Under the pieces are notes generated by a model. That model ran no database searches, had not been told where the DNA came from, and was given only the letters and a program-made list of their open reading frames with translations. From assembly GCF_025526975.1 (NCBI RefSeq), contig NW_026515676.1:620001-684000 (forward strand): a DNA stretch of 64,000 nucleotides. The letters run 5' to 3'. Positions within the stretch are counted from its first letter, which is position 1. Each line of letters opens with the position of its first letter. Source of the stretch: Fimicolochytrium jonesii. Taxonomy: Eukaryota. Shown in pieces: positions 1-48,901 of the stretch. Position numbers and translations under genes: made by a program.

Positions 1-2865
1 GATACTGCTCCAGGATCTGGTTGGTGCGTTCCGTCTGGCCATCGCTCTGGGGGTGGAAGGCCGAGGAGAGGTTGGCTTTTGCCCCAAGGAGTTCGAGAAG
101 TCGACGCCAGAACCGGGACTTAAACTGGGGTCCTCGGTCAGAGATGACATCGTCGGGGAGGCCGTGGAGACGGATGATGTTGTGGAAGACTAGGTCGGCG
201 GTGGATTCGGCGGATTCTGACTCGCTGCAGGCGATGAAGTGGGCCATCTTGGTGAGGCGACAGTTGACGTTCAGGATGGAGTCGTACCCGTCCACGGGAG
301 GCAGACCGGTGATAAAGTCCAGGGACCAAGATCCCCAAGGGCGGGTAGGGATACTGTTGGGCTGGAGTAGGCCGTATGGTTTGTGTCGACTGGATTTGGC
401 TTGGCTACAGGTATCGCAGGACTTGACGTAGGCCTTGACGAAGCGTCACTGGCTGGGCCACCAGTAGTTGCGGGAGGCGAGTTCGAGCGTCTTGGACATC
501 CCAAAGTGGCCGGCTAGGGGAGTATCAGGCATGTCGTGGCAGACTTCAGCTCGGAGCTCGTTGGTGGGGACATAGACCAGGGTATCGTGCAGCATGATCC
601 CATCTTCATCTGAGAACCGCTTGATACGATCTTGGGTTTCCTCAGTTCGTTGGGCGAGGGGTATCTTGAGCTTTTCGCGAATGGTGTTAGCGAGGGGATC
701 AGAGAGCTGGGCGGCCTTAATCTTGTCAAGCAGCGTGGTATCCATGGGTGTGAGGTAGGCACCCGCGAGTCGAAGGCGTTCGGGAGTCAAAATTGTGGTT
801 GCCTGGGAGCGGACTGCTTCTTCCCCCTCTTTGAACTCATGTTTGGAGCGTCAGGAGAGGGCATCGGCTTGGTGCTGCTGGGAACCGGGGCGATAGGTAA
901 TGACAAAGTCAATATCCGAGAAGAATATCGACCAGCGGGCTTGGCGGCGGTTCAGGGTGCGGGTGGTCATGAAGTACTCAAGGTTTTTGTGGTCGGAGTA
1001 AACAGTGATCTTGTGACGGGCGCCAATGAGATGGTGGCGCCACTGAGCAAAGGAGTCTTGGATGGCCAGAAGTTCCTTGTCGTAGATCTTGTAGTTGATC
1101 TCTTCGGCCGTGAATTTGCGAGAGTGGAAGGCCACGGGGTGGAGCTGATTGTCCTGGTCAGGTTGGAGGAGAACTGCGCCAAGAGCGAAGTCGGAGGCGT
1201 CAGTTTCGACAACGAAGGGCTTCTCTGGGTCAGGGTGAGCAAGGATGGGGGCGGTGGTGAATGCTCTCTTCAGGTTCTCGAAGGCGGTGTTTGCGGCGGG
1301 TGTCCAGGCGTACGGGATGTCTTTCCGGGTCAGGGCTGTGAGCGGGGTAGCGATCTTGGAATAACCTTGGATGAAGCGGCCGATAGAAGTTGGCAAAGCC
1401 GAGGAACCGCTGGACGCCTTTGACATTCTTGGGAGGTTCCCAATCCGTGATGGCAGCGATCTTCTTGGGGTCCATCTGGATGCCTTTCTTGGAGATGATG
1501 AAGCCTAGGAACTCAATGGATTCGCGGTTGAATTCGCACTTCTCTGGTTTGGCGTACAACCCATGCTGTCGGAGGCGGGACAAGACTTCGCGGACATGTT
1601 TGGGGTGGTCTTTGGGGTTCTTGGAGAATATCAGGATATCCTCGAGGTAGACGACAACAAACACATCGAGAATGTCGCGGAAGATGTCGTTCATCAGGTA
1701 CTGGAAGACGCCAGGAGCATTGCTGAGTCCAAAGGGCATGACATTGTATTCGAATAGGCCGTAGCGGCAGCGGAAGGCGGTCTTCCATTCATCGCCCGGG
1801 CGCATGCGTAAGAGGTTATAAGCGCCGCGGAGGTCGATCTTGGTGAGACGGCGGGCGCCGCGCAAACAATCCATGAAACCGTTGATCAGGGGCAGGGGGT
1901 AGCGAGTCTTCACCGTGATGCTGTTCAGGCCTCGATAATCGACGCAGAGGCGGAGAGAACCGTCCTTTTTCTTCACGAATAAGACTGGCGCACCGGCAGG
2001 GGACTTTGAGGGTTTGATGAATCCTTTGGCGAGGTTTTCTTCGAGGTATTCGCAGAGTGCCTTCATTTCTGGTTCGCTGAGGCTGTAGATCGGGCCGAAA
2101 GGTGGCTGCTTGCCTTCTTCCAGATCGATTGGACAGTCGTAGGGGCGGTGCTCGGGGAGAGTGTCAGCATTTCTCTTTTCGAAAACGCCGGCGAAGTCTC
2201 GATACTCGGGGGGCAGGAAGTCTTTGATGTCTTTCTCGGGTGTTGTGGGGTTACTGGGGCTAGGCGAGGCCGGGAGATCGGGTTTCGCAGGGTTGGCGTA
2301 GGCGACAAAGACCTGGCCATGCCTTGCTGCCACCCGGAAGGCTGGGGTGGAGGATTGGACCAAGGAGGATTGGAGCATGGGGTGATTTGGTGACATGGAA
2401 GACGAGTTCTTCGAAGTGGTCTTCGACCCACATGCCTACTGGTTGGGTGTGATGGGTGATTGGCCCAGCAGAGCTGGGTTGACCGTCAACGAGTTCGATC
2501 GTCAGTGGACGCTGATGCGGGACTAGGGCGTTGCGGTGTTTGCGGGCAAAGTCTCTGTCGATGAAGCAAGACAGGGCGCCATTGTTGATCATGGTTGAGG
2601 TAGGTATCGGGGCGCGGCTGGATGATACCATGATGGTAACGGGGTAGTTGAAGGGTTCAACGGGACCCAGCGCAAGCATGGCGCGGGGGTTAATTTCGGA
2701 GTTTTCGACATGGGCAGCGGCTAGGAGGGTTGTGTCGGCTATAACGGAGTCAGGAACCAGGGGGGTGGCCTCTCCCGTTGCAGGAGCTGCGAGGTTAGGA
2801 GGCCCGGGGCGGTGTGTGTTGTCCAGTCGCTGGGGCTTTACTGCGGCTGGACTTTGGGAAAACCC
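1..2865 (-). pseudogene. pol: family A pol (PR-RT-RH-IN), frameshifted, with internal stops
   Basis: ORF pieces 2260-2679, 1230-2396, 851-1426 and 446-790 carry PR, RT, RH and IN zinc-finger motifs in Gypsy order; stops at 851 and 446. Confidence 0.92.
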
Positions 2866-3836
2866 TGTTCGGTGGAGGGTTCTTTGATGTTGACGTTGGC
2901 GGCACGGGTGGTGGTCTTGTTCTTGACGGGGCAGACTTTTGCAATGTGCCCCGCGCCACCGCAGTAAAGGCAGAATTTGTTGGAAATGCGACGTTGGCGT
3001 TCCTGAGGGCTCAGAGGGCCGCAGGGACGAGCGGCGTCAATCTGCATAGGCTCGCTGTGGTCGACAGTGGTGGTAGTAGTAAACGAGGTATGGGGAACCG
3101 GGAAGGTCTGGCGGCTTCTGTTTCGCTCCAGGCGGCGCTCAAACAGCCGGTTATCGCACTGGATAGCCTGCTCCATCACCACATCAATGGTGGCCGCAGG
3201 GGGCATTGTGAGCATCGGGTCTTTGACGTCTTCTTGGAGGCCACGGCGGAAGGTAGCTATCAGGGTCTGGTCGTTCCAGGAGACATCGCATTGTAGCTGG
3301 CGGAACTCAGCGACGTACTCGGTTGCTGCAGGGGTTTGGCGAAAGTTCTGGAGCTTGTTTTCAGAGGTGCGGACCCTGTCGCTGTCTCCGAAGACCGATT
3401 GCATCTGACTGATAAAACTATCAAAGTCCTGAAGGCTGTGATCTTGGCGTTCGACTAGGGGTGCCATCCAGGCTTGCGCAGTGCCGGTGAGGTAGGTGCC
3501 AATAGTTTGGATCTTGATGATGTCGCTGGGGTAGCGGTCGGGCTGGAGAGCAAACATCAACCGGATGTTGTTCAACCACCCACGGAATTTGCTGCGGGTA
3601 CCATCAAACTTCTCGGGCGAGCTGATTCTTGGCTCCAGAGCAGGGTTGGTGACTTGGGGACGGGTGTACGTATCGGCTTGAACCTGGGCGGCGATGCTCT
3701 GGGCAGCTTGTGCGTCAGCTTGGGCTTGCGCTAGGTTGGCCTGCAAGTTGGCGTTCTGGCTTTGGAAGGCGGCGATGGCTTGGCACATATCGTTCCATTG
3801 CTTGGCGGTGAAAGGTACGGATTCGGGTTGGGACAT
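2838..3836 (-). CDS. gag: Gag of family A (capsid plus CCHC knuckle CLYCGGAGHIAKVC)
   Basis: 332-aa ORF with PEKFDG, YL.G.A..W, F..GL...VK and PMQID motifs. Confidence 0.9.
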   Translation of the reverse strand: MSQPESVPFTAKQWNDMCQAIAAFQSQNANLQANLAQAQADAQAAQSIAAQVQADTYTRPQVTNPALEPRISSPEKFDGTRSKFRGWLNNIRLMFALQPDRYPSDIIKIQTIGTYLTGTAQAWMAPLVERQDHSLQDFDSFISQMQSVFGDSDRVRTSENKLQNFRQTPAATEYVAEFRQLQCDVSWNDQTLIATFRRGLQEDVKDPMLTMPPAATIDVVMEQAIQCDNRLFERRLERNRSRQTFPVPHTSFTTTTTVDHSEPMQIDAARPCGPLSPQERQRRISNKFCLYCGGAGHIAKVCPVKNKTTTRAANVNIKEPSTEQGFPKVQPQ

Positions 3837-3905
3837 GGCGAAAAAGGTTTGTCGGATGCAGGGCTGGACGGGTTCTGAACTTCGCAGTGTTGGAGCAGAT
3901 CAAAC

Positions 3906-4444
3906 TGTTATGATCTCGACGACGGAGGCGGAAGCGAAGTAGAGAAGACAGGGCGAGAGTGATAGGCGACAAGAGATTGTATTGGCGAAACAAGAAACAA
4001 GGACTAGAACAGGAGATGAGAAGAACTGGTGTTGATCTGCTGGGGAGGAAGGGAATGGACGAAGAGAAGCCGGCTATTTATAGATAGGCAACCCAGCAGA
4101 TCAGAGAACAACAACAACAAGAGGGGACTGGGGGGGCGCCAGCTATGCTCCTAGAGCGTGCGTGGCGAGCGTAGAGAGCATTGCTACAGCTGCTGGCTAT
4201 GGGGAAGTAGTGGGGGGTGTGGAGAAGCCGAGGGGGGATTGGCAAAATGAGAGGAGAGAGGAGGAGTGGCGATATTGCGGGTGGATTGGCGAAATGAGAG
4301 GAGAGAGGGGGAGTGGCATTGACATTGACATTGACACTGACATTGACACTGACATTGACATTGACATTGGCGTTTGACATTTGGCGGTTGACATTGGCGG
4401 CTGTCAGTAGGTAAGCTTATGGTATGGGCGCGTCGTCCATAACA
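3906..4444 (-). repeat. 5' LTR of family A (539 bp, TGTTATG..CATAACA)
   Basis: Repeats at 43144-43681 and 48363-48901; 7-bp terminal inverted repeat; internal (TCAATG)n-like microsatellite and TATAAATA. Confidence 0.97.
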
Positions 4445-7665: not shown

Positions 7666-7884
7666 TGTATTAATGCTAGGTCCGTTGCCAGAGGCTAGCT
7701 CTGTCTCCGCTCGATGTATTGAAAGAACTCTAGAGTTTCTACCTCCCGGGGCGCCGCCCGAAGGCTTTTCTTCCCTTTGGGAGTCACCCCAGAGCGCAGA
7801 ACCCCAATATAATCTATGCTACACGTGATCTCATGCCCTACGCGCTTCCCCGCACTAAGGTGACACCTGCAGCACCTCATTAGA
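7666..7884 (-). repeat. putative 3' LTR of element E (~219 bp), with PPT at 7885-7892
   Basis: Starts TGTATTAATG at the junction with B1 and ends CATTAGA, followed by CCCCCCTT (AAGGGGGG on the minus strand); no second copy in the window. Confidence 0.65.
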
Positions 7885-8118
7885 CCCCCCTTAGAGCCAA
7901 GTGTCACTCCGACACCGACCGCACCTGTCAGTCGCTCCCCGCTGTTACTTGATGTGGAGCTGACACAGGTGTCGGCCATGAGGAGTGCGCATGGCTCTAC
8001 TGGAGCGGCTGGTGTCACCGGTGGTCACCACAATGGCAATCAGATCCACGCCGATATGAGGTAGAGATGATTCAGCCGCAGCTGGTCGTGGGGCGCTATG
8101 GTCCTTGTCCCTGCGGCA

Positions 8119-8125
8119 TATAAAA
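8119..8125 (+). promoter_or_regulatory. TATA box of the antisense gene
   Basis: TATAAAA about 100 nt upstream of ATG 8227. Confidence 0.55.
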
Positions 8126-8226
8126 GGAAGGCAGTAGTCCCCTCGGCACCTTCCCGCCAGTCCCCGGACTTACATTTCTTGCTCCCAATCTCGTAACCTC
8201 TCACGGTCGCCGTTCCCCTCTTCACT

Positions 8227-8985
8227 ATGGCCAGCGTAGCTCCTCCTGCCCAGCCCACTGCCGCCGGCCCGTCATCGGGCAAGAAGAAAGTAGGCAAGGG
8301 CCCCACCACAGGGGACAGCCTGAAGAAGGCTCTCAAGCGACAGCGAGTGGTGAGTCCACGGAGGTTGCCCAATTGACCGAACTTACGTGGTTTGACCAAT
8401 TCCATCTCAGGACACCCCCAAGGTGCACTCGGACAGGACCCCAGAGCCCCCGGCTCCACCGGCCCGACCTACGTGTTGGAACTGCAACACGTACCGCCCC
8501 CGCAAGAGGTTCCTCTCGGCGTGCCAGCACGTTATATGCCGGCCTTGCATCCTCCCGCTCTGTGATGACACCGTAAGGAACCGCATGTCATGGGTGGTTC
8601 CCGTGGGGTGACTGACAGCTCACATCTCTTCCCGACAGACCGACACGCCCATCGGGGAGTTCATGTGCGGCTACGTGGACGGTTTTGGGGAGGAGTGTGA
8701 AGTGCCGCTCTTCTGCCAGGCGCTACCCTGCACCTGTGTGTGGCCCGACTGCGATTGTCTGGCCGAGGACGTGCGGGTCTTCTCCTGCGACCACATCCAG
8801 TGTATGGGGCATGTCCACGCGTAAGTACAACAGTCGTGAATTTTCGACAGGTCCTGCCACTGACGTGATGCGCTCCCTCTAGTCAGATGAACGTCCAGCA
8901 GTTCGTCCCGCTGTGTTGTGGCATGGGGACCGCCTGCCACGGCTCACGTTGCCAATGGTCTTTCGCCAAACAGGCTGGTATTTAG
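8227..8985 (+). CDS. spliced 189-aa Cys/His-rich protein with two RING-like clusters, antisense cargo of element E; exons 8227-8349, 8411-8572, 8639-8820, 8883-8985
   Basis: Introns GTGAGT..CTCAG (61 nt), GTAAGG..ACTGAC..GACAG (66 nt) and GTAAGT..ACTGAC..TCTAG (62 nt) join into one open frame ending at TAG 8983-8985; C-x2-C-x12-C-x-H-x2-C-x2-C pattern. Confidence 0.8.
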
Positions 8986-9074
8986 CCTGGCGTCGTCGTT
9001 CTTCTTTCTTGTATATATTTTGGTGAATTTGATCTCTTCGGAGGGTTTCCCTTTGGTACTTCACCGATTGTCCT

Positions 9075-9470
9075 GAGCCCTTGTGCCTCGCACCCGCTCG
9101 CATCCTAGGCCTTGGTATTGCATACCCACCCGAATGAGCCCTGACACCTCGCTTGCCCGCTCGCATACGCCCTGGTACCCTGTACCCGCCCGCATCCTAG
9201 GCCTTGGTATTGCATACCCGCCCGCATGAGCCCTGACACCTCGCTTGCCCGCTTGCATAGGCCCTGGTACCCTGTACCCGCCCGCATCCTAGGCCTATTG
9301 CATACCCGCCCGCATGAGCCCTGACACCTCGCTTGCCCGCTTGCATAGGCCCTGGTACCTCGTACCCGCCCGCATCATAGGCCCTGGTACCACGTACCCG
9401 CCCGCATCATGAGCCCTGGTACTATGTACCCGCCCGCATCATAGGCCTTGGTACTAGTACCCGCCCGCAT
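9075..9470. repeat. tandem array of ~30-32-bp monomers, partly organised as ~92-bp trimers
   Basis: Recurrent GCAT..GCCCTGGTAC..GTACCCGCCC; GCATCCTAGGCC recurs at 9100, 9192 and ~9283. Confidence 0.9.
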
Positions 9471-9534: not shown

Positions 9535-12500
9535 CAGATACGTTTACGGCGACGAGAGACTGCCGTTCTCTCCTTGGCCTTGGTCTCCCAAGTCTCCCGG
9601 CGCTTGGCGGCTTGCTTTTGGACATATCGCTTGTGGGCCAAGGTGTCACGGACGTGTTGGAGTGGCTCCCAGGTGTTCTGGGACACGTCTTAGCCGGCCC
9701 TTTGACCAGGAACATCTCGGTGTTGCGTACCCACTTGGAGTCGAGGATGTCTTCAACTCGGTGTTCGAGTTCGCCGTTGACTTCCTCTGGGGGGCGTGGT
9801 GCGTCCACTTTTCGGTATGGGCCGTTCTCCGGAGGGTTGTATCTGCGTAGGACGTGGAACACCGGGTGTAGTCCACTGAACTCGTGGGAGAGCTCCAGCT
9901 CGTAGGTGTCCGGGTGGGGCCCTTTTCCGCTGACGGTGAAGTACCCTATCCATAGAGGGGACAGCTTCTTGTTTCGGGCCGAAATACTCTTGATCTGGAT
10001 GCCTTCGCGGTTCAGCAGGATCTGCTCGCCTACTACGAACGCGTCCATATTCTTGTTCCTGTCGTAGTATTTTGCCTGCCTGTCCTGGGCCTCTCGGAGT
10101 CTGTGCTAAACGATGCGGCTCACCTTGGTCAGTTGCTGCATGCGCTCCTCAATGCACTTTCGATCGGCCTGTTTCAGTTGCTCTGTTGGGTCGCTGGTAC
10201 CCCATGGGTCTGGTACCTTTGGGATGTACCCGATGTTGATCTCGTACGGGGACATGCCCGTGGAGGTCTGGGGCGTCCTGTTGTAGTTGTACTCGAGGAG
10301 GGGAAGCATCTCGCCCCAGTTCGAGCCGGTGTAGTTCAGGTAGGGGACCATCATCTTCTTGATTTTGATGACGTTCTCCGTCTTGCCGTCGGTCTGTTGG
10401 TGGCGTGCCGACGAGAGTTCCTGCTCTACGCCGGCGCACTTCAGGAGGTGCTTCCAAAAGGCGCCGGTCCATTTGGTGTCCCGATCGCTGATGATCGTGT
10501 GGGGCATGCCCGTGATGCGGAAGGCCTGGTCAAAGAACAGCTGGGCGAGTTCCTTTGCCGTCGCCTTGAGGTGGGTCTCATGGAGGATAACAAGGCTGGA
10601 TAAGTAGTCCACCAGGATGAGGACGGCTCCCTTGTCCATGAGGGACTCGTCTCCCGCTTCCCCCCCCCTTAGAGTTCGTTGTGGGGAAGTAGATGTCCAA
10701 GCTGACACAACGCCAGCGCTCGTCGGGGACCGAAATGCTGCGTAGGAGCCCGAAGTTGGAAGCCTGCTTGTTGCGTTAGCAGTCGGGACAAGTCCGGACG
10801 TACTGGTGGACCTCGCGCTCAAGGCGGGGCCAGTAGTAGAGCGCGAGGAGTTTGGCGATGGTGCGCTGGACACCCGAGTTGCTGTCGTTGGCCAGGGAGT
10901 CGTGATAGAACCTGAGGAGGGGGCCCCGAAGGCCCTCGGGGACGTAGCGGCGGCCATAGTACAAAAGGAAGCCGCGGTCGTCGCGCGTGAGGCGGCGGGC
11001 AAAACCCTAGAGGGTAGAGGGGTCGTCGGGGTTCGTCGCGGTGGTCTGCAGGTGGGCGAGGGTGTCCTTGCAGAACTTGTCATTGTCGAGCGCAGTGAGC
11101 CACTCGGCGTCGGTAGGAGGCGGCCGGTGATGTTCGGTAGAGGTGTCCCGGTGACAATGGAGAACACTTCAACCTTCATCTGACAGCTGGCGCACTTCGG
11201 GCCGTACAGCGGGTGCGGCTGAGTATGTCGGCGATGTGATTGAACTAGCCGGGGAGATATTCAGTAGTGAAGTCGTAGTCCTGAAGGAACTCCACCCATC
11301 CGGCCTGGCGCCGGGAGAGATGAGGCTGATTCTGGAGGTATATGAGGGATTTGTGGTCGATGAATGCACGGAATTGGCAATCGATGAGGTAGTGGCGGTT
11401 AGCACAGATCACTTTGACCAATGCGAGGAGCTCCTGTTCGTGCACGGGGTATCGGGTTTCGGCCGGAGCCATCTTGCGTGAGTAATATGAGATGACGCAG
11501 AGGCGCGGAAGGTTATTGAGGCCCTTTTTCGTGGTGGGCAGTGGATTCAGCATGGGAAAGTCGCCGTCCGTGCCCTGACCAATCCAGCCCCCTACGGCGA
11601 AGCCCGACGCGTCAGAGAAGATGTAGGGGAACTTATCGGGGTCGAAGAACGCCAGGCAAGGGGCATTGGCGACGCGGGCCTTGATGGTGTCGAATGCTGC
11701 TTGTTCCTCGGCGCCACAGGCGGGTGCCGGGTTGAAGGTTGGTCAGTGGGAGGGCTGTGTCAGCATAATGCGGAATGTATTCCTTGACATAGTTGACTAG
11801 CCCCATGAAGGAGAGGAGCTCGAGGGCGCTGGTGGGTTCGGGTCGAGAGCGGACAGCCTCAACCTTGGACGGGGCGATGGAAAGGCCGTCCTTACCGACC
11901 ATGTGCCCACAGAACTTGACCTGGTCCACTGCCCACTGACATTTGGACGGTTTCACGTGGAGGCGGTGAGCCGAGAGGGTCTTGAGCACTTCGGTGACAT
12001 GCCCGATGTGTGAGTCCATGTCGGGGCTGAAAATAAGGATGTCATCGAGGTGAGAGATGAGATATGAATCGTACTTGTCGCCCAGGAGTTTGTTCGTGAG
12101 GCGTTGGAACGTCGCGGGCGCGTTTGTCAGCCCGAAGGGTAATACGATGTACTGGAAGTGGCCGAAGCGCGTCCGGAAGGCAGTCTTCTCACGGTCTTCC
12201 TCCCGAATGAGGATGCAGTGGTAGGCATCGCGGATGTCGATAGCGGTCAAGACCTTCATGCCGACAAGGCGGTCCCGAAGCTCGTTGAGGTTTGGGAGGG
12301 GCGTTGCGTCCTTATGGGTCATCTTGTTGAGGGCCCGGTAGTCGGTGCAGCAGCGGAGGCCACCGTCCTTCTTCGGGGCAAACAGCACGGGTGCCCCCCA
12401 GGGGCTCTTAGAGTGGGAGATCCACCTGCGGGATGATAGGCGCTCGAGTGGCTGCCGTAGCTCGTTGAGTTCATCGGGGGCCAAGTGGCGGACTGGGAGC

Positions 12501-13807
12501 ATGACAGGCTTGGAGCCGGGCTTCAGATTGATGCTGAAGTTGTCGTCACCGCGGTCCGGCGGGAGGCCGGTCTGTTTGGTGAAGAGGGTATCTGTAAACT
12601 GTTCCAACGTCGGGCGAAGAGGGTGGTCGGCGGCGACCGACGCGAGTGGATCCTCCAGGGTGGTATCTGGAGGGTTGGCCGTTGCCTTTCGGTCCGCCAG
12701 GATCGCACGTTTCTTCGCCTCAACCGTGTGAAGGAAGTTAGTCTCGGCTTCAGCGACGTCCGCGAGGGCGTCGTCTGTGGCCAGGTCCACCTCCGTGTCC
12801 GTGCGTGAGACCCATGCGTTATAGACCTTGGTGGTCTTATCCCTCTTGATCGCTCGCTTGAATTGTTTGGCCGTGAGGAAGCCCTCCTCATTTAAGGCCG
12901 CGTGCTTTGGGTAGAAACGGCGGGGGCAAGGGCCCGTATGAGGTTCGAGTAACCGGGCCGCGCAAGCCCTGGGTTGTTGCCATCCGCGGGTGGTAGGTTT
13001 ACCACGGGAGGTTAGTATGGTTGCGTTAGCCTCGAATTGGAGCGCCGGGAACCCATTGTCGCGCCATAAGCATATGAGGTCAAGGTCCAGGATGTAGGGT
13101 AGCCCTAGGATAACATCCGCGCGGATCGGGGCCACGACGAACGGGACCTGAGGGGTCTTATGAGGTATTCGTTCCTCCGTGAAGACGGAGAGGTCGGCAC
13201 AAATCATCCGCGTGGCGCCGTATGATCTAGCTTTGTCACCCCAGCGCACCTCGAGGAGCGTGGGACAGTTGTACATGTTAAGATCATGGCGTTGGGCGAA
13301 TGAGTCGCTGATGAGCATGGTATTGCAACAAGTGTCTATGAGGATGCGGCAGAAGATGCCGCCGACACGTCCATGGACCATGAACGTGGGCTTGTTGATG
13401 ACAGGCCTGGGGCGGTAGTCCGGAATGGTGTCCTGCAGTCGGGGTCTGGTAGGTCCCTCGGGTTGTCTGGACGCTGAGGCGCCGCAGGCGGTCAGGCCCG
13501 GGAGAAAATCCTGACTGTCGACGGAGTAAGCGGGGCTCGGGGGCTCCTCCGCGGCCAAATGGAACTCGTCGTTGTCATCATTGAAAGCCTCGGCGGGCGC
13601 CGCTGAGATCTTGAGTCGGTCCGGGTTCTTAGGGCACGCTCGGGCGTAGTGGTCCTTGCTGCCGCAAGTGTGACATTCGCCTCGCTGAGTTTTCCTCTCC
13701 TTCCCAAGGAGTACTCGGTTGGAGTTGAAGGTGCGGGGCGTATCGCGCTTGTCGCAAGCCTGGGCCGGAGTGGCCGTAGCGGGTTGGATCCGTTTGCCGT
13801 CTTTCAA
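9535..13807 (-). pseudogene. pol: family E gag-pol remnant (NC-PR-RT-RH-IN-chromodomain), several frameshifts
   Basis: ORF pieces 11633-13807, 11245-11553, 10776-10964, 10106-11179 and 9422-10048. Confidence 0.9.
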
Positions 13808-14682
13808 AATGCGGGCGATCCCGTTGGCATAACCCCTGACGCTCGGAAGGATGCGAGATGTCCTGGATTTCCTTTAAGCTCTTGAGGAGTGTCTGGTATT
13901 TCGCCAAGAGCGAGGCGACAGACCGTGTCTTTTTCAAACTTGTTCCGTCACCAAGCCTTATTGAACCGCTTGGAAGTCATTTCTATGACTTGAGGATTGC
14001 AAAGGGCATTGGCTTGAGCAAATCGAGATACATAATGAGGTGTGGCTTGTAGAGAATGGGTACCCACAGGTTTGATGATCCGAACAGGTCGAACGGGTCT
14101 TTTGTCATAGACTGGTTCTCGTTGAACATCGAAGTAAGGATTGTTGTGTTTTGGGATGTATTCGACGTCTTCCCAAATTCTTGAAGTTCTTTCGCATTTG
14201 ATAGTGACAGACTGCGGTGCGTTTGGTATAGGGCCGTAATTGGTCCAGCGAAGGATAGGTAAGGTACTCATCGAGAATTGTTCAGCGTAATTAAAGAAAC
14301 ACCAGAAAGGCATTCCAATAATAGCATCGTAAGCCAGATTACTGACTAGCCAGGGAAGTTGTCCAACTAAGAAAAGCGACTGAGATTCGAGATCACATAG
14401 ATCTAACTTACTTTTCCGATACGACCGTGTCAAGAATCATGTATGATTCCTTATCGGCCAGCCATATCTGCTTCGGTTCGATACGTTTCTTGGGAAATTT
14501 GTGCTTTTCGACAAATGTCTTATCAAGGAATAACCCAGTTGCGCTGCTATTGAAAAGAACACGAGCAAACTTGTTTCCGATGCGACAATGAGACACCCAG
14601 AGTCCAGCAGACAGTGGTTCGAAGGCAGGTTTATCGGTAGTATCGTATGTTGTAGGCCAAGCAGAGCTACTGAGGGGCTCTA

Positions 14683-16111: not shown

Positions 16112-16386
16112 TGTAACGTCAGAGGAAACGTAGACGATATTGGGCCCTTCCGAGAGGGCTGAGAGCAGTGTATTGTAGTGAAGAAAAAAGTAAGAAGCTC
16201 TTCACAGCGGCCGCTCGAATGACAGCTTGATATATGGGCTGCCAGTGGGGCTTGCGTGGCTTCGGTGAGGCTTGGCGCCTTATGTAATGTATCACCGAGA
16301 GCTCAGGTGGCCAGCCCGGGTCTCGGATCAAGTAGAAGTAAAGAGATATAATATGAAATACAAGTGAAGATGAGATATCCCCGACA
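16112..16386 (-). repeat. 5' LTR of family D (275 bp, TG..CA)
   Basis: Second copy at 34332-34606. Confidence 0.93.
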
Positions 16387-19199
16387 GAAGCAACCGCTTT
16401 ATTGTTCACATCGGTTCCCTTATCGGCGAGACGACGTACAGCAAAGGAACTAAGCGCACAATCCATCAAACAAATCAATGGATATGTGAGCATAGCTATA
16501 ATCGACCATCGTATGCAACAACAACTGGGCGATCTCATAGCCGACGGTATTGGTCTTATCGCGAGTAAGGCCGCAAAGAAACAGGTTATTCAAATTGTCA
16601 GGAGTGATAACCTCCGGGTTGCGCTGTGCCTCGGCAATGATACATCTGAACTCCGTCACATACGAATCCATCAACTTATGGAAAGTCATTCGATGCAGAG
16701 CATTGAGCTCGTCGGTTTTCGCGTTTGTAGGATGAAAGGCTAATTTGAAAGCCGTTTCGAAATCCTCTTTCCTGCATGTGGTATCGAACCAGGTACGCGC
16801 GTCGCCTTCAAGCGAGCCAGATACCTTCTGCATGTCCTTAAAGTCGTCAATCGGAAGACCAAAAGTAAGCATGAAGTCCCTATGCTTCTGCAAGAATGTG
16901 TCGACAAATGCGGCCTCGCGCTGTTTGCCATTGAATGGATGCTGCGAGATCCTTGTACCATGGTGCCTACGCTGCTCGATATAGAACGGATCCACACACC
17001 CATCCTACAGCACATCACGGCGCATCGCAGAGTCACGCTCCAACGTAGCTCACAAGCGATCCTGTCGAACCTGATGTTCCTCGCCATGATAACTGCGAAC
17101 TTCTGCTTGGGCGACAGCCGCCACAGCATTGATTGGGGTGTTGAGCTCCTCGAGGGAGATCGTCAACATAGTCGTAGCGGGTGGGTGACCAGCAGGAGGT
17201 GGAGGAGGTCCGATCTGGATACCAATCGATGGAACAGGTCCCGTTCTTTGAGGAGGAGGAGGAAGGCGGAGTTCAACACAAGGTTTGTCAACCGAAGTCT
17301 CCGGCTCCTCAACTATCTCAGTAATAACAGCCCAACCTGCAGGAGTAGTTTCCTTACTCCTGGTAACTGTTCTACCCGTTGATGTACTCATAACAACCTT
17401 CTGGCCAGTGTAATCGCGTTTTCAGTTTGAATAACCCCAACCAACGACGAATTTGTCCAGAATGCGTACAGAAGTACTCCGTTGATGTTGTATAGCTCAT
17501 TACCTCGAGCAAACACACACAGACAACTAGGTTCTGAATCAGGTATACGCCGTATGCAATAAGCAAAATTCGGGCATAGATTTTCCCTCGTTGGAGCTAA
17601 AAATCCCCAAAATCCACCATGTCCAATGTCGGCGAGTTTTGGCTGCGTTGACCCTACACAGGATATGAAGCTATTAGTTCAAAGAGACCTTTGAGAGGAT
17701 CAAGAAGAACCTTAATGGCTTAGCTCTGTCTCAAAACTGAGAGACGTTTCCTATCGGCCCGTTTTCGCTTAAGTGTCAAATTATCCATGAAGGCGATGAT
17801 GGGTCACTCGTTTCGCTGTGATTCAAAAATTCCAAAACGTTCAGCGTAATTGAAGGTAATTCTCAAGATTGGGAATAACCTTATCGGAGGTTGTTTCGGT
17901 CAAAACTGCGATAGTTTTGCCATACAGAGGTTATAACGGGGACGAAAAACCCCTTTTTCAATATCTCCGTGTCCGTAGGTCGAATCTCTTTGCAACGTCC
18001 ACAAGTCCTGAAGCTCAGCGTGCTCCACGAGGGTTCCGAGTTTAGAAGGGATTGAATTGCTGGGGTAGATTCCCAATCCGTGAACTTGCTAATAACTGGG
18101 TACCAGTAAAAGCGTGTTCATGTCCACTATGTGTCAACCCTTGAACGTATACTCTCAAGGGGTTGATATACCAAAAGAGTAAGGTATGGATGGCAAACGG
18201 TGAGTTATGGAGGTTTGTCCAACCATCCAGGTGCGAAAAGTGAGGTGGTTGCGATGTATCGGTTGTCGTACTAGGTGAATAACCTATAGGTCGGCGCTTT
18301 CGGCTATAGCGCACTAGGGGCTTCAGGAGGTGCGGTGGATGTTGTCCTGGATGTAATGAAGGCTATGTAAATCATCTAGAAGTGTTGTATCGACGTGCTG
18401 TGGCGATTGCTACGTCCGCAATTTTGAGATGCTGAAGTTGCCGACGTGTTTATCCCCTATGAAGCTCATTTTGCTCGAAACAAGTGGTGCTATGCTGTGA
18501 TCTGGGCCACCTTCCACACGGGTTGTATGACTGATGTCTGTATACATTAGCTGCTTTGCTGTAAGGTATTGTAGACGGACTGGGTGTTCGCCCACGCTGC
18601 TATTTGATATCCAGTGAAAGAGTTACTTCTTGTGAATAGGAACGCGCGACAAGCACTGTTAAAGCACCCGTGAGGCTGGAGTCCACTGGAGAACACACTC
18701 GATACGCGTAGGCCAGAAATACCTGTATATCCGCAGAATATACATGTATATTCTGTGAGGCCTGTCTTGCAAACGTGTGGCTCTCCAACCAGACCGGACA
18801 ACCCACATTACATCCCCCCCAGATTCTACAATGCGAACCTACTCCAGCAAGCTCGAGCAATGTAGAATATGACAGTGTCCGGGATCGCACCCAGCCGCAA
18901 TCCTTAATGGTCCTCCTTGTCGGTCCAAATAACCATGGTTCTGCAGCAGAAAGCCATGGTATTCCAGCAGAAAGCCATGGTTCTGCAACTGAACGTCACG
19001 ATCGTGTGTCATTCAGGAAAGCTTTCCAGACAACCGTCGTGGGTAGCGCCATTTGCAAACCATTTTGATTCAATGATCATTGCCATCCATGCTACCTACT
19101 ACTGGCAGCGGGCCTCCCAGCTGGGAATGCAACAGGTGTGCTGTGTCACACGTTGCCTAGTTCGAGTCGTCCGGCAATGGATGTACGCAACCATTGAGC
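16387..19199 (-). mobile_element. Gypsy family B fragment B2: gag N-terminal part, ~1.1-kb leader, LTR 18496-18812, and upstream a PPT plus 3' UTR of another B unit
   Basis: Homologous to 39620-42083 (gag, leader, LTR) and 35344-35720 (3' UTR). Confidence 0.88.
18496..18812 (-). repeat. LTR of family B (317 bp, TGTAATG..ATCACA)
   Basis: Homologous to 49254-49569, 35057-35343 and 41757-42083. Confidence 0.9.
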
Positions 19200-31775: not shown

Positions 31776-33598
31776 CTTGGATTTGTTCTTCTTCTTCTGA
31801 GGTAGCGTGGAAGTAACGTGGGCAGCGGATGCGCCCGACTGAGGCGTACTCGGGGTCTTCTTGTTGAGCTGGGCGGCTATATGAATCGCGGCTTCTTGAG
31901 AAGGACTAAGTCTATCGTCGTACTGAGCCTGAGCAGTGCTCAGGGTACTAAGATTCTTAGGAAGGGCTTGAAGGAAGTCGGCACAGAGCACGTATTCCGG
32001 GAGCCCAGGGAGTTGTCCAGCCAAAAGGTTGAACTGGTCGACGAGTTCGGTTAAACCTTGATGGTTAATTGACTTGGGCTCCAGAGCGCGCAGTGTGTGA
32101 AGAACTTGCGGCAGATGAGTCCAGGGAATGAAGCGCCTTAACATCGCGGAGCGTAATCCGAGTTGCTGGGGCAGTCCATAGTTGTCTTGAATATCGTGCC
32201 ATGAAGTTATGGAGAAGCGCTCGTTTTCAGGAAGGCTTTTCCACCACTGGAGAGCTGGTCCAGTGAGCGCGTTGACGACGAAGTCTACGCATTCGGAAGG
32301 CGAAATCATCTGGTACTTCATAATCACGTCGATGTGATCAAGGAACCCTTGAAGCTTGGTAACATTGGGGTCGCCGTTGTAGGTGCCAAGTTTACTAAGC
32401 GTAGTGTTGATGAAGACTTTGGAAGCTGATTTGCCGGCCGTAGGGGGTGTTACGGGAGTAACAGATCTCACAGATGCACTTTCGTGTGGAATATCAGCGG
32501 AAGGAGGGCTTTGAGAACGGGTTTGAAAGTAAGGATGCCGTTCCGGGGCTTTATAAGCGTATGGGACGGAGTAGGCCATAGCGCGCTGAGGAGGCGCATG
32601 GGGTGCCAGCGACACAGAGGTCATATATGGCACATTTGCCTGGATAGGGCTAGTCGAATAATGAGAGCGAGTGCTGTTCACTGGCGACTGAGCGAGAGGG
32701 TTCACGGAGGGGACGGTAGGTCCGCCTTGTTGTGGCGCTCGGCCCGAATTCAAGAGCAAGGTAACCAATCCAGTCAGATCGGCTATTTGATCCTTCATTT
32801 GAAGCATCTCCTCTTCCCGCTTGACAGGCAAAGGTTCTTCCTGAATGGAATCCATCAGGAAGGGGATGTTTTCGGTTCCGGTATGTCCGTGTCATTCAGG
32901 CGCATCCACATATGGCGTGGTTGCGTCTTTCCATTCTGCAATAGTAGCAGAAAGTTCCTCTTTCCTCTCCTTGTCATCCACAAATTCACCAGGCATTTTG
33001 TAAGGCGGGGTAGGTGTTGGTTCACTGCGTAAGTCGGCATGACGGGCTACGCCTTCATTAAGCGGAGTACGTGAGTCAATGCCAGTGCGCTGATCAATAG
33101 ATTCAGAACTCTTAACAGCAGGTTGAAATTCCTTTCCTCCTCCTTTAGTAGCTGCAGGCAGGGGTCCCAGGAGAGCTCCTCCTTGGGACCGGGTGTGGTG
33201 AGCGGAGGGCTTGCCGGCTGTCACTGCAGCTGCGTAGCCCTTCTGAGGTTGGGTTGTTGAATCCTTAGGTGGCATGGTGCTTTCTATGCGAGCGGTGACT
33301 GGAGACCGTGAGTTCTTTATCCTGGAACGTCCGCTAGTTGCGGGCGAAGCCAGGGCTCATAACCACTTAGCAGTAGTCGGCAGAGGAAGCAGATGACTGA
33401 GCAAACTCTATGTTGGGTGAGATGTAGTACTGTGAAGTATGTATTGTCTTGTAGTAGAAAAGAGGACGCGAGGTCCGAAAGGGAAGAAAAGAGTGAAGTC
33501 CCGTACGCGGAAGCATGGCGTAAGCGGGAAGGAAGTCACGTGGGGAAATAAACTACGGGAACCCTAAACGGGGACTCGGGAGGATGATACCTCCAACA
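31776..33598 (-). mobile_element. family C element, 5' part (LTR 33365-33598, PBS 33351-33364, gag), fused to Copia F pol
   Basis: PBS GGTTATGAGCCCTG; gag pieces 32892-33275 and 31776-32855 (YNGDP..LTGPALQWW..FLQALP). Confidence 0.82.
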
Positions 33599-34331: not shown

Positions 34332-35056
34332 TGTAACGTCAGAGAAAACGTAGACGATATTGGGCCCTTCCGAGACGGCTGAGAGCAATGTATTGTAGTG
34401 AAGTAAAAAGTAAGAAGCTCTTTGCAGCGGCCGCTCGACTGACAGCTTTATATATGGGCTGCCAGTGGGGCTTGCGTGGCTTCAGTGAGGCTTGGCGCCT
34501 TATGTCATGTATCACCAAGAGCTCGGGTGGCCAGCCCGGGTCTCGGATCAAGTCGAAGTAAAGAGATATAATATGAAATACAAGTGAAGACGAGATATCC
34601 CCGACACCTCCCTCAGATCCTGAGGAGGGCGCCGAATAAATAAGAGGTGAACTACGAGGGATATGTGAAGAAAGGGAGAGCTCATGTTCATTTTCAAGTG
34701 TTGATGCACTTGTTCATTTTATAGTGTTGACGCACTGTGTGATGTGTGTGTTTGTGGCAAAGGCGTCCCTAAGCCGACGTCGTGTGTGATATGTGTGTGT
34801 AAGGTCGGTTCTTGCATCGCCGCACGTGATGTGATGTAGTTTATGTCACTATTGTCAGCGGTGTGATTGATAGTGAGCGGTTCTTGCGGCGTCGCGCGTG
34901 TGATGTGATATGAGATGCTCTATGCTGTCCGTCTCCGTATCCACAGAGATTGTGGGTGAGCTTTTCGTCATCGTTTGTAGGCAGGCGTGTAGCGAAGTGC
35001 GGATTCGGGTTCCCAAGTAGGGTCAGGATAACCGAGCCATTTGACTAGAAGATTTC
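34332..35056 (-). mobile_element. Gypsy family D 3' end: chromodomain tail, 3' UTR, PPT and 3' LTR 34332-34606
   Basis: Minus strand 35054-34968 reads NLLVKWLGYPDPTWEPESALRYTPAYKR-stop; PPT GAGGGAGG at 34607-34614. Confidence 0.85.
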
Positions 35057-43143: not shown

Positions 43144-43750
43144 TGTTATGGACGACGCGCCCATACCATAAGCTTACCTACTGACAGCCGCCAATGTCAA
43201 CCGCCAATGTCAAACGCCAATGTCAATGTCAATGTCAGTGTCAAAGTCAGTGTCAATGTCAATGTCAACGCCACTCTCCCTCTCTCCTCTCATTTTGCCT
43301 ATCCTCCCGCAATATTGCCGCTCCTCATCTCTCCTCTCATTTTGCCAATCCCCCCTCGGCTTCTCCACACCCCCCACTACTTCCCCATAGCCAGCAGCTG
43401 TAGCAATGCTCTCTACGCTCGCCACGCACGCTCTAGGAGCATAGCTGGCGCCCCCCCAGTCCCCTCTTGTTGTTGTTGTTCTCTGATCTGCTGGGTTGCC
43501 TATCTATAAATAGCCGGCCTCTCTTCGTCCATTCCCTTCCTCCCCAGCAGATCAACACCAGTTCTTCTCATCTCCTGTTCTAGTCCTTGTTTCTTGTTTC
43601 GCCAATACAATCTCTTGTCGCCTATCACTCTCGCCCTGTCTTCTCTACTTCGCTTCCGCCTCCGTCGTCGAGATCATAACAGTTTGATCTGCTCCAACAC
43701 TGCGAAGTTCAGAACCCGTCCAGCCCTGCATCCGACAAACCTTTTTCGCC

Positions 43751-44749
43751 ATGTCCCAACCCGAATCCATACCTTTCACCGCCAAGCAATGGAACGATAT
43801 GTGCCAAGCCATCGCCGCCTTGCAAAGCCAAAACGCCAACTTGCAGGCCAACCTAGCGCAAGCCCAAGCTGACGCACAAGCTGCCCAGAGCATCGCCGCC
43901 CAGGTTCAAGCCGATACGTACACCCGTCCCCAAGTCACCAACCCTGCTCTGGAGCCAAGAATCAGCTCGCCCGAGAAGTTTGATGGTACCCGCAGCAAAT
44001 TCCGTGGGTGGTTGAACAACATCCGGTTGATGTTTGCTCTCCAGCCCGACCGCTACCCCAGCGACATCATCAAGATCCAAACTATTGGCACCTACCTCAC
44101 CGGCACTGCGCAAGCCTGGATGGCACCCCTAGTCAAACGCCAAGATCACAGCCTTCAGGACTTTGATAGTTTTATCAGTCAGATGCAATCGGTCTTCGGA
44201 GACAGCGACAGGGTCCCCACCTTTGAAAACAAGCTCCAGAACCTTCGCCAAACCCCTGCAGCAACCGAGTACGTCGCTGAGTTCCGCCAGCTACAATGCG
44301 ATGTCTCCTGGAACGACCAGACCCTGATAGCTACCTTCCGCCGTGGCCTCAAAGAAGACGTCAAAGACCTGATGCTCACAATGCCCCCTGCGGCCACCAT
44401 TGATGTGGTGATGGAGCATGCTATCCAGTGCGATAACCGGCTGTTTGAGCGCCGCCTGGAGCGAAACAGAAGCCGCCAGACCTTCCCGGTTCCCCATACA
44501 TCGTTTACTACTACCACCACTGTCGACCACAGCGAGCCTATGCAGATTGACGCCGCTCGTCCCCGCGGCCCTCTGAGCCCTCAGGAATGCCAACGCCGCA
44601 TTTCCAACAATCTCTGCCTCTACGGCGGTGGCCCGGGGCACATTGCAAAGGCCTGCCCAGCTAAGAACAAGACCACCACCCGTGCCGCCAACGTCGACAT
44701 CGAAGAAACCTCCACAGAACAGGGTTTTCCCAAGGTCCAGCCGCAGTAA
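43751..44749 (+). CDS. gag: Gag of family A copy 2 (knuckle mutated: CLYGGGPGHIAKAC)
   Basis: 332-aa ORF homologous to 2838-3836. Confidence 0.88.
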   Translation: MSQPESIPFTAKQWNDMCQAIAALQSQNANLQANLAQAQADAQAAQSIAAQVQADTYTRPQVTNPALEPRISSPEKFDGTRSKFRGWLNNIRLMFALQPDRYPSDIIKIQTIGTYLTGTAQAWMAPLVKRQDHSLQDFDSFISQMQSVFGDSDRVPTFENKLQNLRQTPAATEYVAEFRQLQCDVSWNDQTLIATFRRGLKEDVKDLMLTMPPAATIDVVMEHAIQCDNRLFERRLERNRSRQTFPVPHTSFTTTTTVDHSEPMQIDAARPRGPLSPQECQRRISNNLCLYGGGPGHIAKACPAKNKTTTRAANVDIEETSTEQGFPKVQPQ

Positions 44750-47700
44750 AGCCCCAGCGACTGGACAACACACACCGCCCCGGGCCTCCTAACCTCGCAG
44801 CTCCTGCAACGGGAGAGGCCACCCCCCCGGTTCCCGACTCCGTTATAGCCAACACAACCCTCCTAGCCGCCGCCCATGTCGAAAACTCCGAAATTAACCC
44901 ACGCACCCTGCTTGCCCTGGGTCCCGTCAAACCCTTCAACTACCCCGCCGCGCCCCGATACCTACCTCAGCCATGATCGACAATGGCGCCCTGTCCTGCT
45001 TCATCGACAGAGACTTTGCCCGCAAACACCGCATCGCCCTAGTCCCGCATCAGCGTCCACTGACGATCGAACTCGTTGACGGTCAACCCAGCTCTGCTGG
45101 GCCAATCACCCATCACACCCAACCAGTAGGCATGTGGGTCGAAGACCACTTCGAAGAACTCGTCTTCCATGTCACCAAATCACCCCATGCTCCAATCCTC
45201 CTTGGTCCAATCCTCCACCCCAGCCTTCCGGGTGGCAGCAAGGCATGGCCAGGTCTTTGTCGCCTACGCCAACCCTGCGAAACCCGATCTCCCGGCCTCG
45301 CCTAGCCCCAGTAACCCCACAACACCCGAGAAAGACATCAAAGACTTCCTGCCCCCCGAGTATCGACACTTCGCCGGCGTTTTCGAAAAGAGAAATGCTG
45401 ACACTCTCCCCGAGCACCGCCCCTACGACTGTCCAATCGATCTGGAAGAAGGCAAGCAGCCACCTTTTGGCCCGATCTACAGCCTCAGCAAACCAGAAAT
45501 GAAGGCACTCTGCGAATACCTCGAAGAAAACCTCGCCAAAGGATTCATCAAACCCTCAAAGTCCCCTGCCGGTGCGCCAGTCTTATTCGTGAAGAAAAAG
45601 GACGGTTCTCTCCGCCTCTGCGTCGATTATCGAGGCCTGAACAGCATCACGGTGAAGAATCGCTACCCCCTGCCCCTGATCAACGGTATCATGGAATGTT
45701 TGCGCGGCGCCCGCCGTCTCACCAAGATCGACCTCCGCGGCGCTTATAACCTCTTACGCATGCGCCTGGGCGATGAATGGAAGACCGCCTTCCGCTGCCG
45801 CTACGGCCTATTCGAATACAATGTCATGCCTCTTGGACTCAGCAATGCTCCTGGCGTCTTCCAGTACCTGATGAATGACATCTTCCGCGACATTCTCGAT
45901 GTGTTTGTTGTCGTCTACCTCGACGATATCCTGATATTCTCCAAGAACCCCAAAGATCACCCCAACATGTCCACGAAGTCTTGTCCCGCCTCCGACAGCA
46001 TGGGTTGTACGCCAAACCAGAGAAGTGCGAATTCAACCGCGAATCCATTGAGTTCCTAGGCTTCATCATCTCCAAGAAAGGCATCCAGATGGACCCCAAG
46101 AAGATCGCTGCCATCACGGATTGGGAACCTCCCAAGAATGTCAAAGGCGTCCAGCGGTTCCTCGGCTTTGCCAACTTCTATCGCCGCTTCATCCAAGGTT
46201 ATTCCAAGATCGCTACCCCGCTCACAGCCCTGACCCGGAAAGACATCCCGTACGCCTGGACACCCGCCGCAAACACCGCCTTCGAGAACCTGAAGAGAGC
46301 ATTCACCACCGCCCCCATCCTTGCTCACCCTGACCCAGAGAAGCCCTTCGTTGTCGAAACTGACGCCTCCGACTTCGCTCTTGGCGCAGTTCTCCTCCAA
46401 CCTGACCAGGACAATCAGCTCCACCCCGTGGCCTTCCACTCTCGCAAATTCACGGCCGAAGAGATCAACTACAAGATCTACGACAAGGAACTTCTGGCCA
46501 TCCAAGACTCCTTTGCTCAGTGGCGCCACCATCTCATTGGCGCCCGTCACAAGATCACTGTTTACTCCGACCACAAAAACCTTGAGTACTTCATGACCAC
46601 CCGCACCCTGAACCGCCGCCAAGCCCGCTGGTCGATATTCTTCTCGGATATTGACTTTGTCATTACCTATCGCCCCGGTTCCCAGCAGCACCAAGCCGAT
46701 GCCCTCTCCTGACGCTCCAAACATGAGTTCAAAGAGGGGGAAGAAGCAGTCCGCTCCCAGGCAACCACAATTTTGACTCCCGAACGCCTTCGACTCGCGG
46801 CTGCCTACCTCACACCCATGGATACCACGCTGCTTGACAAGATTAAGGCCGCCCAGCTCTCTGATCCCCTCGCTAACACCATTCGCGAAAAGCTCAAGAT
46901 ACCCCTCGCCCAACGAACTGAGGAAACCCAAGATCGTATCAAGCGATTCTCAGATGAAGATGGGATCCTGCTGCACGATACCCTGGTCTATGTCCCCACC
47001 AACGAGCTCCGAGCTGAAGTCTGCCACGACATGCCTGATACTCCCCTAGCCGGCCACTTTGGGATGTCCAAGACGCTCGAACTCGCCTCCCGCAACTACT
47101 GGTGGCCCAGCCAGTGACGCTTCGTCAAGGCCTACGTCAAGTCCTGCGATACCTGTAGCCAAGCGAAATCCAGTCGACACAAACCATACGGCCTACTCCA
47201 GCCCAACAGTATCCCTACCCGCCCTTGGGGATCTTGGTCCCTGGACTTTATCACCGGTCTGCCTCCCGTGGACGGGTACGACTCCATCCTGAACGTCAAC
47301 TGTCGCCTCACCAAGATGGCCCACTTCATCGCCTGCAGCGAGTCAGAATCCGCCGAATCCACCGCCGACCTAGTCTTCCACAACATCATCCGTCTCCACG
47401 GCCTCCCCGACGACGTCATCTCTGACCGAGGACCCCAGTTTAAGTCCCGGTTCTGGCGTCGACTTCTCGAACTCCTTGGGGCGAAAGCCAACCTCTCCTC
47501 GGCCTTCCACCCCCAGAGCAATGGCCAGACGGAACGCACCAACCAGATCCTGGAGCAGTATCTCCGATGCTTTTGCAACCACCAACAGGACAACTGGAAA
47601 CAGCTTCGGTCGTCCGCCGAGTTCGCCTACAACAACACCCATCAGTCCGCCTCCCAGACCACCCCCTTCTACGCCAACAAGGGTCTCCACCCCCGCTTCA

Positions 47701-48300
47701 GTTTCGCGGCCTCTGCTACCTCCGAATCCGTCAACCCCGCCGCTGAAGCCCGCGCTAAACAAATCAGGGAAGTCCATAAACAGCTCGCCCTCGAGCTCAA
47801 GGAAGCCCAAGATCAAATGAAGCGCTACGCCGACGCCAAACGAATTCCTGGACCGGACTTCAAGCCTGGCGACCACGTCTGACTCCTCTGCAAAAACCTC
47901 CAGACAACCCGACCCTCTCAGAAACTCGACCATCGCAAGATTGGGCCATTCCCCATCGTTGAAAAAATCAATCCCGTCGCCTACCGGCTCAAGCTCCCGC
48001 CTACGTACAAAATCCACGATGTCTTCCATGTCTCGCTCCTTGAACCCCTCTTCACCATCCCCGAACGACACGAACCCGAACCCGCGCCCCCAGAGACCGT
48101 TGAGGGTCAAGAAGAGTGGGTTGTCAAAGCCATCCTTGACTCTCGCATCCATCGTCGCCGCCTTCAGTACTTGGTCAAATGGCAGGGCTGGCCTGACTCT
48201 GAGAACAACTGGGAGCCCGTGGAACACCCCACCCATACCGACGCACTCCTCCAGGACTTCCACAGCGCGTATCCCAACAAACCTTCCTCTGTCCCCGTAG
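44722..48300 (+). pseudogene. pol: family A pol with stops and frameshifts
   Basis: ORF pieces 44973-45305, 45169-46059, 45981-46712, 46773-47117 and 47268-47882; TGA at 46710, 47115 and 47880. Confidence 0.93.
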
Positions 48301-48901
48301 CACCTCCTCTGCGGCCACACCAAACTCGACGCCGCCGCCGCCGCCGCTAAAGAGAGGGGTGATGTTATGGACGACGCGCCCATACCATAAGCTTACCTAC
48401 TGACAGCCGCCAATGTCAACCGCCAAATGTCAAACCCCAATGTCAATGTCAATGTCAGTGTCAATGTCAGTGTCAATGTCAATGTCAATGCCACTCCCCC
48501 TCTCTCCTCTCATTTCGCCAATCCACCCGCAATATCGCCACTCCTCCTCTCTCCTCTCATTTTGCCAATCCCCCCTCGGCTTCTCCACACCCCCCACTAC
48601 TTCCCCATAGCCAGCAGCTGTAGCAATGCTCTCTACGCTCGCCACGCACGCTCTAGGAGCATAGCTGGCGCCCCCCCAGTCCCCTCTTGTTGTTGTTGTT
48701 CTCTGATCTGCTGGGTTGCCTATCTATAAATAGCCGGCTTCTCTTCGTCCATTCCCTTCCTCCCCAGCAGATCAACACCAGTTCTTCTCATCTCCTGTTC
48801 TAGTCCTTGTTTCTTGTTTCGCCAATACAATCTCTTGTCGCCTATCACTCTCGCCCTGTCTTCTCTACTTCGCTTCCGCCTCCGTCATCGAGATCATAAC
48901 A

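Follow-up and report, generated by a model that had tools for sequence, protein, structure and literature searches.

In the 3' region of element E, a decayed Ty3/gypsy element of the chromovirus type, we found a spliced antisense gene of 189 codons. We read it tentatively, giving the complete reading a little under an even chance, as an accessory gene of E for a nuclear protein with two zinc-binding modules, which would be a RING-type ligase or a ligase-like adaptor. The antisense unit is very likely a real spliced gene, and we are highly confident that it is a gene now or was one until recently. That it was inherited with element E we consider rather likely.

The window (the whole 64-kb stretch of DNA analysed) contains a nest of decayed LTR retrotransposons in its first 50 kb and host genes beyond. 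Element E lies on the minus strand of this nest, and the coordinates of its parts and of the antisense gene are listed in Table 1. The Pfam matches on the minus strand gave the domain order protease, RT, RNase H and integrase, and this order is colinear with the protein P0002. The chromodomain at the integrase C-terminus is split by a frameshift; both halves matched PF00385 weakly (E of about 0.05, profile positions 3-22 and 29-42), and the region aligned to P0002, which bears a chromodomain. The E pol carries five frame switches and five in-frame stops over 3.66 kb, three of the stops being located in weaker alignment.

Table 1. Coordinates of element E and of the antisense gene in the window.
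Feature	Position	Strand	Basis or remark
Element E, Ty3/gypsy chromovirus type, decayed	7666 to ~13878	-	
Probable 3' LTR of E, 219 bp, TCTAAT...ATACA on the minus strand, unpaired	7666..7884	-	Sharp junction and adjoining polypurine tract
Polypurine tract (PPT) AAGGGGGG	7885-7892	-	Sequence; directly inside the LTR-like segment
TATAAAA, likely core promoter of the antisense gene (putative function)	8119-8125	+	Sequence; pyrimidine-rich leader after it
Start codon ATG of the antisense gene	8227	+	Context CACTATGG
Exon 1, 41 aa: Pro/Ala-rich start and basic, NLS-like KKKVGK...KKALKRQR	8227..8349	+	
Intron 1, 61 nt, GTGAGT..TTGAC..CAG	8350-8410	+	
Exon 2, 54 aa: ligands 1-6 of RING-like module 1 behind a Pro-rich linker	8411..8572	+	
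Intron 2, 66 nt, GTAAGG..CTGAC..CAG	8573-8638	+	In-frame TGA inside
Exon 3: C-x9-C pair completing the ligands of module 1, then the module 2 core (C-x4-C ... C-x-H-x2-C-x2-H)	8639..8820	+	
Intron 3, 62 nt, GTAAGT..CTGAC..TAG	8821-8882	+	
Exon 4: remainder of module 2 (CC-x5-C-x4-C), then TAG as stop at 8984-8986	8883..8986	+	
T-rich 3' region with TATATA, GC 0.43; likely 3'-end signal of the antisense transcript (putative function)	8987..9076	+	
Tandem repeat array, ~32-bp subunits in 92-bp higher-order units, between antisense gene and pol	9077..9470		
Stop codon of E pol	9537-9539	-	
End of gag (zinc knuckle) and pol: protease, RT, RNase H, integrase, SH3, chromodomain	9537..13873	-	Pfam; tblastn to P0002

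The border at 7665/7666 is sharp, as the pol of a family D chromovirus breaks off there and a 219-bp segment opening with TGTA starts. Read along E, this LTR-like segment has the terminus ...TACA at 7666, and its start reads TC rather than TG. Together with the PPT, the segment has the anatomy of a 3' LTR and probably is one. The earlier note had assigned 7666-7892 to the 3' LTR and PPT of E; the PPT and the sharp border support this assignment. No second copy of 7666-7884, which would make it one of a pair of LTRs, was found in the window. The 5' part of E, with the 5' LTR, is missing, and at about 13878 E abuts a third element, F, with the protease and gag of the latter at the junction. A deletion that removed the 5' part of E is the simplest reading of this junction and is likely. 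The repeat array between the antisense gene and pol showed no folding excess over shuffles on the genomic strand (z = -0.12).

On the plus strand, the removal of three GT-AG introns resulted in an open frame of 189 codons downstream of TATAAAA, a motif with two sites on this strand of the window, including the one at the gene. The plus-strand unit had been proposed before with the same TATAAAA, the ATG, the three introns and a length of 189 aa; all of these were borne out, and our translation is identical to the protein described then. The Cys/His spacings were also recovered on the spliced frame, from residues C63 to C174. The proposed extent of 8119..8985 held for the gene and failed at its end, which lies one base further with the stop TAG. 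Exon 1 had no match in Pfam, and its basic stretch appears NLS-like from the basic residues it contains.

A strict intron pattern, defined after the introns had been seen, retrieved four donors on both strands of the 64-kb window, and three of the four are located in the antisense gene. With a looser scan, 16 candidates of 45-90 nt were retrieved, and the three introns of the antisense gene were the sole in-register cluster among them. From 3000 dinucleotide shuffles of 8227-8986, none yielded a frame of at least 180 aa with at least two introns. The GC3 of the spliced frame was 0.767, compared with 0.59 and 0.54 at the other codon positions, and this value was reached in 0 of 5000 shuffles. 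Additionally, the spliced frame encodes 19 Cys without a stop, whereas the two alternative frames have 4-6 Cys and 3-4 stops. Two of the donor sequences, GTAAGG and GTGAGT, recur unchanged in the introns of the host LEU4-like and THG1-like genes of the window, and the removal of these host introns gave open frames of 620 and 283 aa, respectively. The observation made in the earlier note was confirmed in its predicted introns, open frame and position, and the intron cluster with its open frame goes far beyond what the shuffles gave.

The remaining strict-consensus intron candidate of the window (33071-33121, plus strand, 51 nt) is antisense to a gag-like region and probably due to chance. A sense-strand open frame at 8040-8468 (minus strand; 142 codons, 121 from Met) overlaps the antisense promoter and first exons and is probably a by-product of high GC. 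A sigma-70 promoter scan was set aside as inapplicable to a eukaryote.

The predicted protein comprises a basic, Pro-rich N-terminal third followed by two Cys/His modules. The ligands of module 1 are C63, C66, C79, H81, C84, C87, C105 and C115, and those of module 2 are C128, C133, C145, H147, C150, H153, C167, C168 and C174. Two C-x-H-x2-C-x2-[CH] cores, a motif chosen after the fact, occurred in a fraction of 6.5e-5 of 200,000 residue shuffles. In RING-HC domains, ligands 1-6 follow the pattern C-x2-C-x(9-39)-C-x(1-3)-H-x(2-3)-C-x2-C. Module 1 has this pattern from C63 to C87, whereas module 2 departs from it with C-x4-C and with His at ligand 6. The strict C3HC4 pattern had no match in the protein, as a last pair C-x2-C is absent (C105-x9-C115; CC-x5-C). 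The E2-contact positions of RING domains are poorly conserved in module 1: N stands at C1+2, no Pro follows C105, and Glu follows C115.

The exon 2 query, which covers part of the domain, retrieved five Pfam matches, all of them RING families and all below the cut-off; the best was zf-RING_5 (E = 5.1e-4, 20.4 bits versus a cut-off of 27.9). The four PDB matches of exon 2 were also RING proteins without exception, and these were weak (PCGF5, E = 0.23; BRE1A/B, E = 2.3-2.7). Exon 3 gave chance-level matches only (FOXP-CC in Pfam, E = 0.48; a ZAP1 finger, E = 0.5). Module 1 shares with RING-HC proteins such as PCGF5 and BRE1 the C-x2-C ... C-x-H-x2-C-x2-C core and fitting hydrophobic neighbours, with weak matches; the differences are the sub-cut-off Pfam score, the last pair C-x9-C, the two tandem modules and the His at ligand 6 of the second. 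A single-sequence structure model of exon 2 alone was of low confidence and uninformative (pLDDT 52.7, pTM 0.17). The likeness between modules 1 and 2 was not significant (p = 0.12), and an origin by internal duplication was not supported.

The tandem RING-like protein of the earlier note was retained in part. RING-like is a fair description of module 1, whose exon 2 matches are all RING; module 2 is ambiguous, being tentatively RING-like, and could be a C2H2-like finger instead. The last pairs are non-canonical. The RING1-IBR-RING2 layout of RBR ligases, with its catalytic cysteine, is absent, as there are two modules in 189 aa and none of the four exons has an IBR match at E up to 1. The long last pair and the ...PLCC of the protein presumably recall an RBR RING1, but the IBR-RING2 part and the substrate domain of these ligases are absent here.

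With regard to its origin, the antisense unit (8227-8986) sits between the pol stop and the PPT of E, which is the aORF-3R position. Neither a long terminal inverted repeat nor a target-site duplication nor a clear Helitron end was seen around the gene, and no separate DNA transposon or Helitron enclosing it came to light. The codon log-ratio of element versus host was +0.070 for the antisense gene (95% interval 0.018 to 0.117), a value inside the range spanned by the five left-out pieces of E pol (+0.033 to +0.084); all five left-out host pieces scored lower (-0.116 to +0.002). Families D and F scored below the gene (-0.183 and -0.086, respectively). The pol of family G scored +0.065, as high as the gene; therefore, codon similarity does not single out E. 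The codon similarity to E is a modest signal with a small host sample.

In family D, which is related to E, chromodomain and LTR lie about 350 bp apart, versus 1,650 bp in E, and the antisense gene is absent from this slot of family D in the same window, where the gene occurs as a single copy. The earlier note had attached significance to an intact cassette beside a broken pol. At the lesion density of E pol, a 579-nt target would escape all lesions with a chance of 0.21-0.39; hence, the intactness argument fails and carries no weight. The remainder of that interpretation, an accessory factor encoded by the element, was supported in part, by the spliced antisense unit in a chromovirus 3' region, its E-like codon use and its RING-like module 1. 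The antisense gene probably belongs to the element.

E pol has its closest named relatives among the proteins of a chytrid, Powellomyces hirtus, at 68-78% RT identity. A tree was built from 35 rows, composed of E and the 34 rows most like it out of 100 rows covering RT; in it, E grouped with three P. hirtus rows (P0005, P0010 and P0013) with a support of 99/93. E was compared with these chromodomain Ty3/gypsy elements and with the JGI protein P0002 at the level of the pol proteins. Judged from the element, the host is likely a chytrid of Spizellomycetales type. A scan of loci for close relatives of E confirmed 0 of 61 and 0 of 3 stretches in viral contigs and 0 of 89 in genome contigs. From 190 stretches of metagenome contigs, 42 RT-like loci (L001-L042) were obtained with 22-36% identity to the pol query; at this identity, they were rejected as members of the E clade and assigned to a different retroelement group. 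The exon matches at these loci were also rejected, as they were merely Pro-rich stretches of 16-17 residues and short Cys stretches.

No homolog of the antisense gene emerged from the protein searches: exon 2 had 18 candidates among longer proteins and the exon 2-3 read-through protein had 7, none of which was homologous. Exon 3 had two matches among 1.84 billion cluster representatives (P0122 and P0123), which were rejected as homologs because they are bacterial repeat proteins (Rib, HYR_4C) and their score was summed over repeats. Rfam returned 0 matches at E up to 0.1.

For an accessory gene of E, we propose the following course. Transcription would start close to the 3' LTR, at a TATA promoter belonging to the gene, and run against the direction of the genomic RNA, and the antisense transcript would be spliced by the host. 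Introns antisense to the genomic RNA stay in and survive reverse transcription, according to the accessible text of PMC12786077, and this is the logic of retrotransposition indicator genes. Since the gene is antisense to the genomic RNA, its introns would survive in this way, and the gene would be passed on with the element. The protein may enter the nucleus through its basic stretch and bind zinc in two cross-braced modules. Speculatively, as a RING-type ubiquitin ligase or a ligase-like adaptor, it might act on host chromatin or silencing proteins; both a role in E2 binding or as a ligase and a target in silencing are conjectural. Some viruses carry tools against host proteins; with a ligase among its products, the element would have an active tool of this kind as well. 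We consider unlikely a broader version, in which a chytrid chromovirus lineage encodes a spliced antisense tandem-RING ubiquitin ligase, a retrotransposon analogue of those RING ligases by which viruses destroy the silencing factors of their hosts, in a swappable 3' slot occupied by other zinc proteins elsewhere in fungal gypsies.

Three other explanations were weighed against the accessory ligase or adaptor. It is highly improbable that there is no gene at all, the pattern being due either to splice-like motifs that arose by chance in the GC-rich 3' region or to an antisense RNA with an incidental frame. The late choice of the scan criteria and the lack of a homolog in the protein searches leave some room for it, whereas the shuffles (0 of 3000), the GC3 excess, the Cys and stop counts of the three frames, and the TATA box with the start context speak against it. 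Somewhat unlikely is an element-borne, non-catalytic zinc-finger factor without ligase activity, which would bind the DNA or RNA of the element (e.g., the adjacent tandem repeats or the LTR) and, in the manner of Cer1 CERV or retroviral Rev/Tat, regulate transcription or export. Such a factor would fit the basic N-terminal stretch, the non-canonical RING ends, the C-x-W-x2-C motif with its chance-level matches to ZAP1 and FOXP fingers, and the tandem array adjoining the gene; CERV, as described in the accessible text of PMC10309623, is a spliced, nuclear, cysteine-loop accessory protein required for genomic RNA export. However, all informative matches of exon 2 belong to RING families, the C2H2 spacing deviates by one residue (C-x13-H) with finger matches at chance level, and no nucleic-acid-binding domain was detected.

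The gene could also be a one-off passenger, that is, a host gene or a gene of another mobile element that was captured by or inserted into this copy of E, or a few copies, as neutral cargo. We consider this rather unlikely. A host-type homolog was not found in the protein searches, and fungal RING genes are usually conserved enough for a match; the codon use is nearer to E than to the five host pieces, the three introns (61-66 nt) vary less in length than the four host introns checked (43-220 nt), and no insertion footprints were seen. Furthermore, transduced genes are usually in sense orientation (PMC7264820). These points are opposed by the single copy in the window, the relative family D without the gene, the intactness that is not significant, the host-like splice signals and the location in a nest of rearranged elements. 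A mere passenger would be an ordinary capture event. A RING-like product offers a directly testable biochemical guess, ubiquitin transfer.

The brtn gene of Boty-like (BcGypsy1) retrotransposons in Botrytis cinerea and Sclerotinia was reportedly described by Zhao et al. 2011, and Retand is said to carry a tandem repeat, a likeness to the array that adjoins the antisense gene here. Genes running antisense in the stretch from pol to the 3' LTR have been described as a class, with Grande gene23, RIRE2, Retand, PvRetro13 and the fungal Boty brtn as examples; transcription is described for those of Grande, RIRE2, Retand and Boty, and Grande gene23 has its own upstream promoter and a nuclear product (PMC7264820). 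The function of the antisense extra genes of LTR retrotransposons is an open question, and most of them have no recognisable domain (PMC7264820). Given the precedent of brtn and gene23, the architecture itself is not new. The slot of an antisense extra ORF at the 3' side is already known; the RING-like cargo is unusual, and the host lineage is new. With a RING-like antisense gene, the known range of such genes would reach into an early-diverging lineage of fungi.

The closest comparison in fungi, brtn, shares the slot and differs in its ascomycete hosts from the chytrid-related lineage studied here (PMC7264820); it was compared by description only, and the accessible text of PMC7264820, PMC8365987, PMC4227169 and PMC5987419 does not mention a RING for it. 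The plant aORF-3R genes (Grande gene23, RIRE2, Retand and PvRetro13) have the same slot and orientation and are mostly without database homologs (PMC7264820). They occur mainly in non-chromovirus lineages, whereas E is of the chromovirus type and its gene has three short spliceosomal introns. No RING is present among the 12 rows of a domain table of plant extra ORFs restricted to matches in at least five elements (PMC6317226, Additional file 4).

Among other LTR elements, CERV of C. elegans Cer1 is likewise an element-encoded, spliced, nuclear and cysteine-dependent regulator; it comes from a spliced Cer1 mRNA, the accessible text does not mention an antisense origin, and its fold and host are different (PMC10309623). 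The Burro elements of planarians carry ubiquitination-related motifs, including an AIR1 RING Zn-finger annotation; these are in the polyprotein, antisense is not mentioned in the accessible text, and the fold and host differ (PMC6431247). A further LTR accessory protein is the orchid AlkB ORF (PMC9289625, accessible text). The accessible parts of the fungal surveys PMC2864245, PMC3248453, PMC7175516 and PMC10799480, and of PMC5408684, contain no such gene. In the literature searched, which consisted mostly of papers outside subscription, an antisense RING gene in a fungal LTR element was not found.

The surroundings of E in the window presented further features. The nested order is D(3') / E / F(5') / D(5'), with borders at 7665, about 13878 and 16385. 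Missing are the 5' part of E, the 3' part of F and, judged from the other D copy, about 1.5 kb of D, which fits one deletion across the nest. The LTR of family F is located at 16112-16386, and an apparent solo copy at 34332-34606 is 95% identical. In family D, an LTR of about 700 bp is separated from gag by about 1.3 kb (17224-18495) that look non-coding. Family G, also a gypsy, is present as two inverted copies (1-4444 and 43144-48914) with 97.8% identity, and its 553-bp terminal repeats contain (CAATGT)n and 13-bp microrepeats. The host genes at 51049-61692 comprise an MFS transporter, an isopropylmalate synthase (LEU4-like, 620 aa, two introns), an actin-family gene, a thiamine-phosphate-synthase-like gene and the THG1-like gene (283 aa), which has two introns, one of just 43 nt. 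Finally, at 62394-63244, between host genes, an AT-rich 250-bp unit is repeated 3.4 times at 100% identity, which points to a very recent duplication or an assembly artefact.
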